Shown here: positions 38,768 through 53,134 of the stretch, piece by piece
Layout of the letters: each line of letters begins with the position of its first letter
Numbering within the stretch: the stretch's first letter is position 1
Assembly: GCA_020354555.1 (NCBI GenBank)
Contig: CP070648.1
Span: forward strand, 1,281,336-1,345,335
Length of the DNA stretch: 64,000 bases
Reading direction: 5' to 3'
DNA from: Armatimonadota bacterium
Lineage (GTDB): Bacteria > Armatimonadota > Hebobacteria > GCA-020354555 > CP070648
Notes under the pieces: model-generated
Seen by the model: the letters and a program-made list of their open reading frames with translations, nothing else
Told to the model about the DNA's origin: nothing
The model's database searches: none
Position numbers and translations under genes: made by a program

Positions 38768-40111
38768 CTACCGCTGCTGCAGCTTCTTCGCAGTGGCGAT
38801 CGAGCCGATGTACTTGTCCACCCCGATCGTATACGTCATGATCGGGTCGGGCTTGCCGGTCTCCTTCATGCGGCGGTCGAGCCAGGCGAGCATGCGCCCG
38901 CGCAGGTGTTCCACGACCGTGCGCTCCTTCTTCGCGAGGTTCTTCTCCTCGAGCGGGTCGGTCACCAGGTTGTACAGCTCCACCGGCGGCTTGTCGTGGA
39001 AGTCCGGTTCCAGGGCCTCGATGAGCTTCCACTCCGGCGTGCGCCAACCGCGCTTGCGCATCCAAGTGCACTCGCTGATGTAGAACTCCGAGCGGTAATT
39101 CGCCACCTGGCCGCGCACCATGCGCATCAGGTTGTTGCCGTCGAAGCGTGTCTTCTTGGCCTTCTCCAGGCCCATTACGTCGACCAACGTCGGCACGATG
39201 TCCTCGAGCAGCGCGATGCCCGTGAGACGCATCCCGGCCGGCAGGCGGCCCGGCCAGTGCAGCACCAGCGGCACCATCAGCGTCGGCTCGTACGTGCCGT
39301 GGTGATCGAAATAGCACCCGTGGTCGGCAAGGGTCTCGCCGTGGTCGGAGGTGAAGAGGACCAGCGTGTTCTCCCACTGCCCGAGTTCCTGGATATGCCT
39401 GAAGATGCGAGCGATGCAGGCGTCCATGTACGCCAGCTCACCGTCGTACTGCGCGATGACGTGGTTGATGTCGCGGATTCCCGGCGGCATCCATGACAGA
39501 TGGAAATCGCGGAACGGCTTGAAGTCACGCACCGGGCCCATCGTATCCGGCAGCGCCGGGTCACACGGATCGCCGGAATAGAACATCGTGTCGAACGGCG
39601 GCGGCGGCACGTACGGAGCATGTGGGTCCATGTGGCGCAGGAACAGGCACCACGGCTGGCCGGACTGCGCCATCTCGTTCAGCATGGGCAGCGCTTTGTC
39701 GTTCAGGTTCTCCGCCTTGCGCGCTGGGCGATCCTCCCACGACACCCACGCCTCATAGTCCGCGTATTTGTCGAAGCCGCGGTAGAAATCGCCCCCGAAT
39801 CCCACGCATGCGGAGGCATAGCCGTGATCGCGCAGGATCTCGCCGAGGGTAGGATGGTCTGGATCGAGAACCCGACCTTGCGGACTCAGCCCGACCATCT
39901 GGGTATTGATAACATCCCACCCTGTGAGCATGCCCGAATATCCCGGCGTCGTCGGCACGTACGGGCTGAACATGTTCTCGAACAGAACGCCGCTGCGGGC
40001 AAGCTCATCGAGATGCGGCGTCGTGCGGCGATGGTAACCGTACATCGAGCAGTGATCGCGGCGCAGGCTGTCCACCGCGAGCATGAGCAGATTCGGGCGA
40101 CGACGTGGCAT
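38768..40111 (-). CDS. Sulfatase-like alkaline-phosphatase-superfamily hydrolase with Thr (not Cys/Ser) at the formylglycine position.
   Basis: N-terminal LLMLAVDSLRRDH metal-site start. Signature region VPTTPGYSGMLTG aligns to C-x-P-x-R...LTG with T-x-P-x-Y. AAGGAG RBS 8 nt upstream. Confidence 0.6.
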   Translation of the reverse strand: MPRRRPNLLMLAVDSLRRDHCSMYGYHRRTTPHLDELARSGVLFENMFSPYVPTTPGYSGMLTGWDVINTQMVGLSPQGRVLDPDHPTLGEILRDHGYASACVGFGGDFYRGFDKYADYEAWVSWEDRPARKAENLNDKALPMLNEMAQSGQPWCLFLRHMDPHAPYVPPPPFDTMFYSGDPCDPALPDTMGPVRDFKPFRDFHLSWMPPGIRDINHVIAQYDGELAYMDACIARIFRHIQELGQWENTLVLFTSDHGETLADHGCYFDHHGTYEPTLMVPLVLHWPGRLPAGMRLTGIALLEDIVPTLVDVMGLEKAKKTRFDGNNLMRMVRGQVANYRSEFYISECTWMRKRGWRTPEWKLIEALEPDFHDKPPVELYNLVTDPLEEKNLAKKERTVVEHLRGRMLAWLDRRMKETGKPDPIMTYTIGVDKYIGSIATAKKLQQR

Positions 40112-40187
40112 GGATTCTTCTCCTTGTTGCTATCTGTGAATCGCAAAAGCGCACGCAGCGCTGAATGGCGACCCCACCGAGTGCGGT

Positions 40188-40277
40188 GTCATTCAGAGCC
40201 GAAGGCGAAGAATCTCGGTTCCGCAGTAGGCGGCGGTGCCGGGATTCCTCGCCCCGCCCCGCTGCGCTCGGAATGAC
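40188..40277. repeat. Complete copy of the interspersed inverted-repeat element (GTCATTC...GAATC family). Forms a ~90-nt hairpin bracketed by ~17-nt direct repeats.
   Basis: Arms gtcattcagagccgaaggcgaagaatc / gattcctcgccccgccccgctgcgctcggaatgac. Flanking direct repeats cgcagcgctgaatggcg (40154-40170) and cgcagcgcgctgacgggcg (40284-40302). Confidence 0.55.
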
Positions 40278-40302
40278 AGCCCGCGCAGCGCGCTGACGGG
40301 CG

Positions 40303-41103
40303 CTAACGCACTCCGCACGCCTTGATGCACGCGTTAAGATAACCGCGGCTCTCGGCGGCGACAATGGCGCAGCGCGCAAGTTCATATTCCCCGGCGCCGA
40401 TGATCTCCAGATCAACCGGGCCCGTGTATCCCGCTTCCGTCAGGACTCTGACATACCCCAACAGGTCAATCTCGCCGCGTCCGCAGGCCTGCACCTCGGG
40501 CTTTCCCGGGCCGGGGCCCCGGTCGGGACAATCGCGGATGTGGATGTGCCGCACGCGGCTGATCACTTGCGGCAGCGCCTCCACCGGGTTCTCGCCGGCG
40601 CGATAGACGTGGCTGGGATCCATGTCTATCCCGAACCCGGGAGAATCAATCTCGGACATCGCGCGCAGGGTCGTCGGTGTGTTGTAGATGCTGGCGCCGA
40701 CGTGGGCCTTGACGCACAGGACGACGCCGAAATCGGCCGCGCGCTCCGCCAACTTGGCCATCTTGGCGATCGCCGCTTTGAGATCATCGTCGTTATCCGA
40801 CTTCCCGCCCGGGCCGATATTGATGACCGGAATGCCGATGTCGGAGCAGGCCTCGAATGCGGTGATGAGGCGCTCCTCGTCGAGGGCGGCCTCCTCGATC
40901 GCCAGGAGCTTGAGGCCATGCTGCTGCGCCAGGTCGCGTATGCGCGGCGCATCCTCACGCCACGTGTCGAGACACAAGTGCTCGCACATGCCCTTGATGG
41001 CCGACAGCTCAATGCCATCGTAGCCGGAAGCGGCGGTGTGCGCCATCGCCGTCTCCAGATCAAATCCACCGAACAGAACCGAATTCGCACCGAGGGAAAA
41101 CAT
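40303..41103 (-). CDS. Sugar phosphate isomerase/epimerase (xylose-isomerase-like TIM barrel).
   Basis: AP-endonuclease-2 / xylose-isomerase-like TIM pattern (GYDGIEL...H.......D). GAGGAGG RBS 5 nt upstream of the ATG at 41103. Confidence 0.7.
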   Translation of the reverse strand: MFSLGANSVLFGGFDLETAMAHTAASGYDGIELSAIKGMCEHLCLDTWREDAPRIRDLAQQHGLKLLAIEEAALDEERLITAFEACSDIGIPVINIGPGGKSDNDDDLKAAIAKMAKLAERAADFGVVLCVKAHVGASIYNTPTTLRAMSEIDSPGFGIDMDPSHVYRAGENPVEALPQVISRVRHIHIRDCPDRGPGPGKPEVQACGRGEIDLLGYVRVLTEAGYTGPVDLEIIGAGEYELARCAIVAAESRGYLNACIKACGVR

Positions 41104-41130
41104 TCAGCCTCCTCTTGACCGTTCTCGTTT

Positions 41131-41194
41131 GTCATTCCGAGCGCAACGAGGAATCTTGGCCCCGCCGGACCCAGGAGTCCCTCCGGGATTCCTC
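41131..41194. repeat. Second copy of the GTCATTC...GAATC repeat family. Left arm plus inner stem only.
   Basis: gtcattccgagcgcaacgaggaatc ... ccgggattcctc. Intercistronic, immediately upstream (mRNA sense) of the isomerase RBS. Confidence 0.5.
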
Positions 41195-41342
41195 ACTGCG
41201 GCCGTCGGCTTCAACCCAGTGGCCTCAGCGCACAATTACTTGAGGGCGGGGCGTCACCGTCAGCCGGTCGCTGCGGGGAGGCGCCGGGCGGGTCTGACCT
41301 CGGCACGGATTGCCCCTCGCATACCGCATCGGCCCCGGCGCT

Positions 41343-42335
41343 TCACGCCAGGTCCACGACCGAATGCGTTTCCCAGGACCTGATCGCCCCCTCAATGATC
41401 TCCTGCGCGGCGAGCGCGTCGGCACCGGACGCGTCCACCTCCTCCGGCTTCACGCCTTCCGTCATTTGCTCCAACCACTTGTGGATGCGCGACTTGAAGG
41501 TCTCCCCGAAGCTCATCATCCCGCCGAGGTAATAGTACGTCTCCTTCTCCTGCGAGAAGCGCGGGTACCACGTCAGCACTTCGCAGGCGTCATCGAGCAC
41601 GAAGCGCCCTTTGGAGCCAACCACCTCGCAGCGCTCGAGGCCGAAGCTCCCCCCGGCGTCGTAGCTGCCCGTCAGGTGGCCGACGACATCGTTCTCGAAA
41701 TGCATATTGATCTGAGCGTTCGACCAGATCGTGCGCCCCTCGCCCTTCATCAGGAACGCGTGCACACTCTTCACCGATCCGCAGAAGTAGCGCATCACAT
41801 CAATCGAGTGCGGATGCAGCGCGCGCAGATGGAACCACGGCGACGTCTCGTTCGGGTTGTTGATCCACATCGTCATGTTGATGATGTGGAGCTTGCCCAG
41901 CCGCCCGCTGTCCCCCCACTCCTTGGCGCGAATGGCGGCCGGCGTGAAGCGGTGGTTCAGGTTAATCGCGTAGGGCAGCTTCTTCTGCTTCGCCAGAGCG
42001 ACCATCTCGCGGCCTTTCTCGATCTCGTTGGAGATGGGCTTCTCGCCGAGCACCGGAATGCCGCCCTCGAGCAACTCCATCGTGGGCACGTAATGGTCGC
42101 CGCCGTTCTCCTTGCCCGCCGTGCACATGCTCGCCGCGTCGATTCTAATGTCGCTGGCGAGCATCTCCTTAACGCTGTAAAACGCCGGCACCCCGTAGGC
42201 CTGCGATGCCTTGTCCGCGCGTTCGTGGATGATGTCGCAGACCGCTACGATTTCCGAAAGGGCGTCGTCCTGATAGACGCGGGCGTGGGTATTCCCGATC
42301 CCACCCATGCCGACAATTGCGATTCGTAAGGCCAT
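41343..42335 (-). CDS. Gfo/Idh/MocA family oxidoreductase (third copy).
   Basis: Start reassigned to MALRIAIVGMGGIGNTHARVY (ATG 42335). EKPIS motif. The long Arg/Pro-rich N-terminal extension in the ORF track was rejected. Confidence 0.75.
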   Translation of the reverse strand: MALRIAIVGMGGIGNTHARVYQDDALSEIVAVCDIIHERADKASQAYGVPAFYSVKEMLASDIRIDAASMCTAGKENGGDHYVPTMELLEGGIPVLGEKPISNEIEKGREMVALAKQKKLPYAINLNHRFTPAAIRAKEWGDSGRLGKLHIINMTMWINNPNETSPWFHLRALHPHSIDVMRYFCGSVKSVHAFLMKGEGRTIWSNAQINMHFENDVVGHLTGSYDAGGSFGLERCEVVGSKGRFVLDDACEVLTWYPRFSQEKETYYYLGGMMSFGETFKSRIHKWLEQMTEGVKPEEVDASGADALAAQEIIEGAIRSWETHSVVDLA

Positions 42336-51506: not shown

Positions 51507-53047
51507 ACCTGCGTGACATGGTGATACCAATGGCAGCGACGTGGCTGATCGCTGTGCTGGGAGGTGCAGCCTTGACAACAGCCCAGGCAGATTGCGTGGT
51601 ATGGCCTGTTGACGGAATGACGAAGGTCATGCGCAGGGCGCAGCCGCCGGATCCGCTGCCGCGCAGCGTGCGCATGTACGCGGCACGCAATGAGTATGAG
51701 TCCGCCCAGGTCGTGATCCGCGCGGAGTCGCGTCGGCTTGACGAGGTCAAGGTCGCGGTAAGCGATCTCATCGGCCCGCGCGGGCGGAAGATCAGCTCGC
51801 GGGATATCGCCCTGCACCGCGTCGCGTACATTCACCTGCCCGCGCTTAATGCCGACTTTCCGGATCCCCTGCCGCCCATCACGCCGTTCTCGGTTGAACC
51901 GGACGCCGATCAGCCGGTGTGGATGACGGTCTATGTCCCCAAGGGGACGCCCAAGGGCGAGTATCGCGGCCAACTCACGGTCTCCATCTCAGGGCAGGAA
52001 GATCGCCGCGTGCCAATCGTCCTCACGGTCTGGGGCTTCACGCTCCCCGACACGCCCGCGAGCCGCACGGCCTTCGGCATCAGCGGCGGCTTCATCGCGG
52101 CCGCTCACGGCCTCGACACGAAGAGCAGGGAGTATCAGGAACTACTGCCGCAATACTACCTCGCGCTCCTGGAACACCGGATATCGGCTTATGACCCTCC
52201 CGTGCCGCTCGATTCATCTGAAGTGGGCTACTACCTCGATGACAGCCGCGTCACCGGCTTCATCATCCCTTACTCCGATGACGTCGCGCGGATGCGCGAG
52301 GACGTGGAACGCTGCCGCAGCAACGGATGGCTCGACAAGGCGTACTTCTACCCGCTCGACGAGCCGTTCACGGCTGAGGCCTACGCGACGCTCAAGCAGC
52401 GCGCAGATCGCATCCACTCGATTGACCGCTCACTGCAGGTCGTCTCTCCGTACTTCCGCGGCCCGGACTTCGAGACCGACCAGACGATCTACGAGCACTT
52501 CGACGGCTCCCTCGATATCTGGTGCCCCAACCTCGGGTTCTACGACGCGAAAGCCATGCGCGCCAAGCAGGCGAAAGGGGAGGAGGTGTGGTGGTACGTG
52601 TGCTGTGGGCCGGGTCAACCATACCCCAACTTCTTCGTCAATTATGACGGCGTGGATCACCGCATCCTGATGTGGATGCAGAAGCTCTACGACGTGCAGG
52701 GCCTGCTCTACTGGAGCACCACGTACTGGAACCCGAACATCACGAAGGATGTCTGGGATGACGTTGCCACGGTCAAGGACATCAATCCCAATCTGTACGG
52801 CGACGGGTCGCTGTTCTACCCGGGCTCGAAGGTCGGTCTCGCGCAGCCCGTGAGTTCCATACGGCTTGAATGCATCCGCGACGGGCTGGAGGACTTCGAC
52901 TACCTTGCATTGCTCGAGCGCAAGGTGGGGGTGGCGAGGACGAAAGACATCATCCGCCGCCTCGTGCGCAGCCGCACGGAATACGAGAAGAGCCCGCGCC
53001 GGCTGCAGCTGGTGCGCCGCCAAATCGCGCGGGAGCTGGAGCAGTAG
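51503..53047 (+). CDS. DUF4091-domain (GH123-like) putative glycosidase, secreted.
   Basis: ATG at 51503 overlaps upstream TGA (ATGA). GGGAGGGG RBS. Signal peptide MNLRDMVIPMAATWLIAVLGGAALTTAQA. WWYVCCGP motif recalled from DUF4091 proteins. Confidence 0.45.
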   Translation: MNLRDMVIPMAATWLIAVLGGAALTTAQADCVVWPVDGMTKVMRRAQPPDPLPRSVRMYAARNEYESAQVVIRAESRRLDEVKVAVSDLIGPRGRKISSRDIALHRVAYIHLPALNADFPDPLPPITPFSVEPDADQPVWMTVYVPKGTPKGEYRGQLTVSISGQEDRRVPIVLTVWGFTLPDTPASRTAFGISGGFIAAAHGLDTKSREYQELLPQYYLALLEHRISAYDPPVPLDSSEVGYYLDDSRVTGFIIPYSDDVARMREDVERCRSNGWLDKAYFYPLDEPFTAEAYATLKQRADRIHSIDRSLQVVSPYFRGPDFETDQTIYEHFDGSLDIWCPNLGFYDAKAMRAKQAKGEEVWWYVCCGPGQPYPNFFVNYDGVDHRILMWMQKLYDVQGLLYWSTTYWNPNITKDVWDDVATVKDINPNLYGDGSLFYPGSKVGLAQPVSSIRLECIRDGLEDFDYLALLERKVGVARTKDIIRRLVRSRTEYEKSPRRLQLVRRQIARELEQ

Positions 53048-53108: not shown

Positions 53109-53134
53109 GTCATTCTGAACGAAGTGAAGAATCC
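53109..53134. repeat. Third copy of the GTCATTC...GAATC repeat family (single unit).
   Basis: gtcattctgaacgaagtgaagaatcc. This created the spurious N-terminal extension (…HSERSEES…) of ORF 53081. Confidence 0.5.

Follow-up and report, generated by a model that had tools for sequence, protein, structure and literature searches.

What is the imperfect palindrome of about 90 nt that separates two genes of a sugar-utilisation operon in an Armatimonadota bacterium, and what brought it there? We addressed this question in a 64,000-nt stretch of contig CP070648.1 (positions 1,281,336 to 1,345,335; hereafter the window), where a 191-nt gap (40112-40302) between a sulfatase gene and an isomerase gene houses the palindrome, just where the original prediction had placed it. 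That prediction, made from the letters of the sequence, had offered two readings: the insertion of a MITE (a miniature type of transposable element with inverted repeats), or a transcript stabiliser of the repetitive extragenic palindrome (REP) type. Based on our analysis, the element is probably an inverted dimer of an oriented, CGTC/TGTC-tagged hairpin repeat of the Ssn-related motif (SRM) kind, inserted in the operon. This reading is carried by a hairpin unit that covaries, is spread across phyla and is linked to ssn genes, by the homology of the small GIY-YIG proteins encoded by these genes to the Neisseria nuclease SsnA, and by the absence of the element from orthologous operons.

The hairpin unit and its inverted dimer

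The whole dimer (40187-40278, TGTCA...TGACA) consists of two units whose tags point outward and whose tails point inward. In unit U1 (40188-40214, + strand, 27 nt, GTCATTCAGAGCCGAAGGCGAAGAATC), a TGTC tag whose T is at 40187 precedes the outer stem ATTCA/AGAAT. Inside this stem are a G.A/A.G internal loop and a GCC-GAA-GGC mini-hairpin, and a C follows it on the 3' side. A 28-nt spacer with a small stem-loop of its own (40215-40242) separates U1 from unit U2 (40243-40277, - strand, 35 nt, GTCATTCCGAGCGCAGCGGGGCGGGGCGAGGAATC as read on that strand), whose outer stem ATTCC/GGAAT is perfectly paired and whose inner part is enlarged by a G-rich insertion of about 10 nt; expanded inner stems are common in the hairpin family. 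The innermost pair of the U1 outer stem is mismatched (A.A), and the 27-mer GTCATTCTGAGCCGAAGGCGAAGAATC from a Dehalococcoidia locus is otherwise the same as U1 with this pair intact. The predicted ~90-nt imperfect palindrome with an inner GAATC/GATTC stem was real, its arms being found as quoted at 40188-40277. Folded as a 96-nt DNA, the dimer reached -29.2 kcal/mol (z = -4.4), a value attained by none of 200 shuffled sequences.

The palindrome had also been called interspersed, and further units were indeed present at 41131-41155 and 53109-53133. The first of these, U3 (GTCATTCCGAGCGCAACGAGGAATC, + strand), is found in the operon's next intergenic gap, between the Gfo-type gene and the isomerase gene, with its end 27 nt upstream of the point where the isomerase gene starts. 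A truncated partner arm could be read directly from the sequence at 41187-41199 (GCAGTGAGGAATC on the - strand), 31 nt from U3, with just the 3' 13 nt of a unit left. The second, U4 (GTCATTCTGAACGAAGTGAAGAATC, + strand), is a solo unit in the gap after an open reading frame (ORF) ending at 53047 and has no recognisable partner arm. Here an inner A-T pair replaces G-C, which is a compensated change, and the resulting GAAC...GTGA variant recurs in other genomes. All four units of the window are intergenic. The 27-nt unit pattern matched once (0.01 expected) and the pattern ATTCNGAGCN{3,30}GAATC three times (0.11 expected), a count that none of 100 shuffles reached. An Rfam covariance-model scan of 39000-41500 at E <= 10 returned nothing relevant. 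As to strand, the + strand is the sense strand for three of the four units, a sample too small to judge replication strand bias; over the whole window, cumulative GC skew drops almost monotonically and most long ORFs lie on the - strand.

Seen across genomes, the unit is an oriented hairpin of 25-35 nt with the layout TGTC-ATTCY-GA-GC-GNA-GC-GA-RGAAT-C. An unpaired 5' TGTC tag is followed by a 5-bp outer stem whose first pairs are A-T and T-A. Next come a symmetric internal loop (G.A/A.G), 2-3 bp of inner stem (GC/GC, often longer) and a GNA triloop. An unpaired C stands immediately after the stem, and all four window units end in ...AATC. When one genome per species was scanned with the pattern GTCATTCNGAGCN{5,25}GARGAATC, at least 120 stretches matched. 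The consensus of 156 units, among the 120 loci listed, was GTCATTCYGAGCGNAGCGARGAATC (the commonest 25-mers), with Y and R always complementary. The base preceding GTCA was T in 161 of 192 arms.

Covariation was assessed in 43 distinct units taken from loci that had been chosen by their proteins. Here the search pattern fixed the tag, the core and the terminal C alone; leaving the stem free avoided selection bias in the test. Stem cells were paired in 93.7% of cases, compared with at most 48.5% in slid-register controls. Doubly changed stem cells numbered 34 versus 8.8 +/- 2.2 in shuffles, with none of 500 shuffles reaching 34, and four of the seven stem pairs showed changes on both sides. Positions G2, T3, C4 and C26 were invariant in this alignment. 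Partner arms of one dimer often had differing, self-consistent stems (ATCCY/RGGAT, ACCCT/AGGGT, ATGCT/AGCAT, ATGTC/GACAT), so complementarity is kept within each unit and not between arms. The conserved entity is the small unit hairpin, not the 90-nt palindrome. Among the genome loci listed, 75 pairs were arranged with tags outward, compared with 11 with tags inward and 12 in direct orientation, and two other locus sets gave a similar picture. The median spacer of tags-outward dimers elsewhere was 23-32 nt, and the window dimer is a typical copy of this arrangement.

Distribution and linkage to ssn-type genes

The unit is spread over nearly all bacterial phyla. Among the matches listed, unit-bearing loci belonged to Nitrospirota, Chloroflexota, Acidobacteriota, Planctomycetota, Verrucomicrobiota, Bacteroidota, Bacillota, several proteobacterial classes, groups of the candidate phyla radiation (CPR), Abditibacteriales (Armatimonadota) and one Nanoarchaeota bin. 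To characterize the neighbourhood of the units, we compared all against all the 622 ORFs that lay no more than 250 nt from a unit in the 120 loci listed, and the sole small recurrent family was GIY-YIG. In the Gracilibacteria locus L034 and the Kiritimatiellae locus L040, a GIY-YIG gene has a + unit just before its start codon and, on its other side, a - unit that overlaps the 3' end of the gene. We then examined 80 metagenome loci picked solely by alignment of small GIY-YIG proteins, using a unit pattern that admits the frequent A.C first pair. A unit was found within 250 nt of the gene in 74 of the 80 loci, and 38 had both a + unit upstream and a - unit downstream. Unit density was 4.45/kb near the gene versus 0.21/kb in the farther flanks, a 21-fold difference, and the loci together held 214 units compared with 1.9 in simulated sequence. 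The bracketed proteins have about 95-130 aa and a single PF01541 domain.

The Neisseria hairpin NTS (CGTCATTCCCGCGMAVGCGGGAATCYRG) is oriented as well and flanks ssnA, which encodes a 94-aa single-domain GIY-YIG protein, a single-stranded DNA (ssDNA) nuclease of the cd10448 type (PMC11893778). When PLSDB was searched with a member of our family, the hits included two complete N. gonorrhoeae chromosomes filed as plasmids, and in one of them a 94-aa ORF is surrounded by seven exact NTS copies. Compared with the L040 protein, this ORF shows 43% identity (E = 1e-24); its match to the family profile has a probability of 99.8% (E = 5.6e-30). Through this homology to an NTS-flanked Neisseria ORF, the proteins bracketed by G.A-type units are identified as members of the Ssn family. 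The hairpins around the homologs differ: a Novosphingobium homolog is flanked by CGTCGCCCCGTGCTTGACACGGGGC, while homologs from Planktothrix and Spirosoma have G.A-type units. Such variety agrees with the many enzyme-motif pairs described in print. Searching NCBIfam and PADLOC with the Ssn proteins gave no meaningful matches. On IMG/VR viral and prophage contigs (L211-L330; at least 120 stretches), the canonical 25-nt G.A unit was abundant, with 293 units in 1.1 Mb; a search of 120 unit-bearing viral stretches for ssn-like genes found none, and the positive control on genome loci worked.

Two ssn genes were seen in contexts of their own. On a Planktothrix agardhii plasmid (NZ_LR882964.1, 18253-19713; L208), an ssn homolog with G.A-type dimers has a type IIL MmeI-like restriction-modification gene on one side and DISARM drmA on the other, a defence-island-like context. 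About 1.2 kb upstream of the ssn gene of protein P0086 (L331-L340) is a reverse transcriptase (RVT_1 + bAvd) that looks like a diversity-generating retroelement.

Several loci show units in larger or unusual settings. In Terriglobia/Acidobacteriota (L013, L030, L080, L088, L093), an extra conserved motif, CAGGCTGCGGAAAA, lies about 12-15 nt beyond the TGTC tags on both sides of the dimer, so that the repeated element in Acidobacteriota seems larger than the dimer. In the Planktothrix plasmid (L208, 956-1003) and in L003, L022, L034 and L089, two to three tandem copies of the 5' half-unit (GTCATTCTGAG plus about 12 nt) stand directly upstream of a full unit. These half-units stand 5' of the tag, near the side on which SsnA is reported to cut, and could be a footprint of nicking and repair. 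A Dehalococcoidia chromosome (OZ244885.1; L023, 6247-7141) carries seven identical units in both orientations within a tandem array of about 329-nt period. In a metagenome-assembled genome (MAG) of Fibrobacter (L091, 7194-7343), two units lie inside a putative lipoprotein ORF, where the signal peptide contains one, translated as VILSVAKNL, and a Ser-rich linker the other, translated as VILSDSEES; the hairpin family is therefore also present in coding sequence. Database entries are affected too, since many N- or C-termini of Ssn-like proteins (P0001-P0120) are translated flanking units, with C-terminal tails derived from the 3' unit, such as GDSSLRSE*, GPSLRSG* and RSLDKLGMT, and other extensions such as SFRAKRGI, CHFERSREI and IPRQARDD. 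These termini are probably mis-called, and units are routinely translated as spurious protein tails (VILSEAKNL, SLRSE*, LGMT), an annotation artefact.

The gene-less dimer at 40187-40278 has the same ends as a unit-ssn-unit cassette with only the 28-nt spacer between them, and gene-less dimers in general would derive from such cassettes. A cognate Ssn would be encoded elsewhere in the 4.9-Mb genome and would act on the window copies, which may be either live Ssn substrates or relics. A tags-outward dimer would offer such an enzyme one cleavable unit per strand, at its two outer edges. A bolder proposal, which we regard as possible and somewhat doubtful, is that the G.A-interrupted hairpin TGTC-AYYCY-GA-GC-GNA-GC-GA-RGRRT-C forms a class of Ssn sites in its own right, perhaps a very widespread one, that gene-less dimers are non-autonomous derivatives of the cassette, and that the cassette spreads by ssDNA nicking without target-site duplication. 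If true, this would be a mobile-element mechanism parallel to that of REPINs and their REP-associated tyrosine transposases (RAYTs), built on a different nuclease fold (GIY-YIG).

Flanking repeats, orthologous operons and rival explanations

The MITE reading rested on direct repeats around the palindrome. Two such repeats exist, CGCAGCGCTGAATGGCG on the left (40154-40170, + strand) and CGCAGCGCGCTGACGGGCG on the right (40284-40302, + strand), differing from each other by a 2-nt indel and two mismatches. Their gapped similarity score is 12, compared with 6.7 +/- 1.6, and only 0.9% of random flank pairs with the same spacing in the window score as high, so the predicted ~17-nt repeats are more alike than 99% of flank pairs. 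They do not abut the arms, however: the left one lies 17 nt away, outside the family architecture, and the right one 6 nt away. The latter had been thought to overlap the isomerase stop codon and in fact only abuts the TAG at 40303-40305. It is possible that the repeats are decayed half-units. The left repeat scored 9 against the 5' half of a unit on the - strand, which is weak (top 1% of windows), and the right one scored 7 (top 11% of windows, not significant).

A classical MITE would have arisen by deletion from a DDE-type insertion sequence and would carry terminal inverted repeats and a target-site duplication, and we find this explanation hardly credible, although the arms are inverted repeats and the similarity of the flanks is rare among random pairs. 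In 95 tags-outward dimers from other genomes no target-site duplication was found and the longest exact flank match was 4 nt; flank-to-flank similarity was 6.88 versus 6.73 in controls and thus showed no excess. What extends outward in these dimers is the palindrome itself, with T before GTCA and A after TGAC. There are no direct repeats at U3 or U4 either, and the insertion architecture, which the original prediction had itself tied to direct repeats at other copies, is contradicted by their absence from the 95 dimers and these two units. Further, each arm is itself an internally covarying hairpin, something that terminal inverted repeats do not require, and the gene enclosed by full-length versions encodes a nuclease rather than a transposase.

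Similar architecture is known from REPINs, REP doublets that are moved in trans by a RAYT (a Y1 HUH enzyme of the IS200/IS605 type) cutting beside a conserved tetranucleotide in ssDNA. In the REPIN literature (PMC3337134, PMC3116915), tagged oriented hairpins occur as intergenic, multi-copy inverted doublets about 30 nt apart. Such an origin is nonetheless very unlikely for the window element. Its tag is TGTC and not GTAG, the all-against-all comparison of unit-adjacent ORFs gave no recurrent family but GIY-YIG, and the units are linked 21-fold to ssn genes. In addition, no tyrosine transposase or RAYT flanked by CGTC-type repeats was found in the survey of that superfamily (PMC3733652). A chance palindrome can be regarded as refuted. 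The surrounding DNA of 64-68% G+C is rich in short inverted and direct repeats, but the pattern counts far exceed those in shuffles and hundreds of unrelated genomes contain the same 25-27-mers.

The remaining alternative is that the element acts primarily as RNA, as an intercistronic stem-loop in a Gfo-isomerase-sulfatase transcript that shields the mRNA from 3' exonucleases or tunes expression. REPs of E. coli protect upstream mRNA and tune relative expression. The flanking genes of the window element are co-directional with short gaps, both operon gaps carry such elements, and the intergenic RNA is predicted to fold at -88.9 kcal/mol (z = -2.7). Moreover, the CGTC-REP paper mentions a hypothesis that REPs stabilise mRNA (PMC3733652). 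On the other side, 40112-40302 contains no T-run and hence no intrinsic terminator. Across phyla the motif is conserved regardless of the neighbouring genes or the direction of transcription, and copies are found within coding sequence too; its unpaired tag and orientation-specific conservation fit a protein-DNA recognition site, and SsnA does not bind RNA (PMC11893778).

Orthologous operons bear on the same alternative. In the window, the sulfatase-family gene (PF00884; 38768-40111, - strand) is the downstream flank of the dimer and the xylose-isomerase-like TIM-barrel gene (PF01261; 40303-41103, - strand, stop TAG at 40303-40305) the upstream flank, with a Gfo/Idh/MocA oxidoreductase gene farther upstream. 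The isomerase protein is 100% identical to a protein from an Armatimonadota MAG. No unit was found by regular-expression search in six syntenic loci (L201-L206, 7-9 kb each). Where the isomerase is 82% identical to the window protein (L202, L203), the isomerase-sulfatase spacer is 61 nt, and where it is 79% identical (L204-L206), 87 nt, in both cases without units. L201 (85% identity) has a 307-nt spacer with only degenerate unit-like fragments in a different arrangement. The dimer and U3 are thus lineage-specific additions to the operon and not conserved regulatory parts, and we consider a primary RNA role, including the intercistronic stabiliser of the original prediction, unlikely. Since the intergenic RNA would fold stably, a side-effect of the insertion on the transcript could exist.

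The sulfatase gene itself deserves two remarks. The N-terminal motif of its product, VPTTPGYSGMLTG (39950-40111, - strand), replaces the classical C/S-x-P-x-R. This is consistent with the earlier description of the enzyme as Thr-type, with a Thr nucleophile as in phosphodiesterase-like superfamily members. Its ribosome-binding site (AAGGAGAAGAATC, an inverted repeat) was considered as a decayed unit and rejected, because AAGGAGAA is the Shine-Dalgarno region in the unit-free ortholog L201.

Several observations weigh against the reading of the window element as an inserted Ssn-type dimer. Searches by tblastn and hmmsearch found no ssn gene in the 64-kb window, and the P0086 ssn protein, present on 16 contigs, had one genomic context that was the same in all 10 places examined. 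The published SRM search string HGTCWYN(0-2)YYVSBRHN(0-5)WNVSBRGN(0-2)RNCYNB, hand-built from 29 genomes (PMC11893778), had no match in the window (U1-U4 included), in any canonical G.A 25-mer or among the 80 ssn loci; it matches the Neisseria NTS and breaks at the G.A loop in G.A-class units. Ssn biochemistry is published for the Neisseria and Wolbachia enzymes only, not for the G.A hairpin class (PMC11893778). The four described CGTC families, known from 5 phyla and mainly from Alphaproteobacteria, have continuous 8-9-bp stems with 4-5-nt loops (PMC3733652), whereas the unit has 5 + 2 bp around two G.A pairs and a 3-nt loop. Because of the mismatch in the outer stem of U1 and the 10-nt insertion in U2, the window copies may also be decayed. 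Finally, nearest-neighbour folding of single units gave only -0.8 to -6.1 kcal/mol (z of about 0) and the inter-arm hairpin was predicted to be far more stable than the unit hairpins; in ssDNA, this dimer could fold so that the unit hairpins are hidden. Tandem sheared G.A pairs in a Y-GA-R context and d(GCGNAGC) mini-hairpins are unusually stable in DNA. Both motifs lie within the unit core Y-GA-GC-GNA-GC-GA-R, a structural analogy only, and such a core would fit recognition at the DNA level in ssDNA and could explain the weak standard folding energies. The conservation of the tandem G.A and GNA-triloop core points to an ssDNA-specific recognition structure.

Comparison with known hairpin-repeat systems

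The original prediction had also called the palindrome a REP-like interspersed inverted repeat, and this label has proved apt, with the CGTC/TGTC-tagged palindromic superfamily and the Ssn-related motifs as its closest counterparts. REP, BIME (bacterial interspersed mosaic element) and REPIN-RAYT systems share with the unit hairpins that carry an unpaired tetranucleotide, the formation of doublets and a small gene for an ssDNA-hairpin enzyme flanked by repeats. They differ in both tag (GTAG) and enzyme, an HUH Y1 transposase and not a GIY-YIG protein. A search for literature linking GIY-YIG with REP, REPIN or RAYT gave nothing relevant. Full-text searches for the sequence of the G.A unit and for its core found unrelated primer matches only, the supplementary tables of PMC11893778 being outside the search.

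The likeness to the CGTC-tagged REP superfamily, which includes Neisseria dRS3 and Rickettsia RPE-4 and RPE-6 (Di Nocera et al., BMC Genomics 2013, PMC3733652), is closer. These repeats have TGTC or CCTC as tag variants, A-T in the first two stem pairs and a short unpaired tail, and they occur predominantly as inverted dimers, often heterodimers, with spacers of 20-100 bp (PMC3733652). The unit shows the TGTC variant of the tag, A-T at stem positions 1 and 2, mostly inverted dimers and no RAYT-like family among its neighbours. It differs in being far more widely distributed than the described families. The authors of that survey noted that structurally unusual members may have escaped their search (PMC3733652). 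We file the element with the Ssn-motif/CGTC-REP kind, as a structural sub-class that may be undescribed.

The closest comparison is with the Ssn/NTS system. SsnA binds its hairpin as ssDNA only and in one orientation only, and cuts a few nt 5' of the motif; cleavage needs three bases before the palindrome and binding needs above all a C directly 3' of it (PMC11893778). The system lowers transformation by NTS-bearing DNA (PMC11893778). Ssn homologs with their own SRMs are widespread, and the NTS-ssnA-NTS architecture is described in the same work (Chenal et al., Nat Commun 2025, PMC11893778); the authors note that the cassette resembles an insertion sequence and propose the enzymes as programmable ssDNA cutters (PMC11893778). 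The G.A-type unit is likewise an oriented, multi-copy, intergenic hairpin found in a motif-ssn-motif arrangement with homologous proteins. Window unit and NTS share GTCATTCC...GGAATC, with the common skeleton [C/T]GTC-ATTCC...GGAAT-C. Compared with the features that define an SRM, TGTC stands before the stem as the unpaired (H)GTC tag in U1-U4, a C follows directly 3' of the palindrome in all of them, and the units are inverted repeats of 25-35 nt (20-50 nt in SRMs) with a covarying stem, albeit with weak single-unit energies. The unit class flanks Ssn-family genes in 74 of the 80 loci described above.

Two differences set the unit apart from NTS. The NTS stem is continuous (ATTCCCGC), whereas the unit stem is broken by the tandem G.A/A.G loop and closes with a GNA triloop, and the hosts of the unit are Armatimonadota, Chloroflexota, Acidobacteriota, CPR groups and others. 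Since the published pattern misses the G.A variant, surveys based on it would under-count such copies. Taken alone, the window dimer adds little, being an ordinary member of a repeat family for which an explanation has recently been published. It belongs to a variant through which the Ssn/hairpin system extends to Armatimonadota and to many further phyla outside the proteobacteria.

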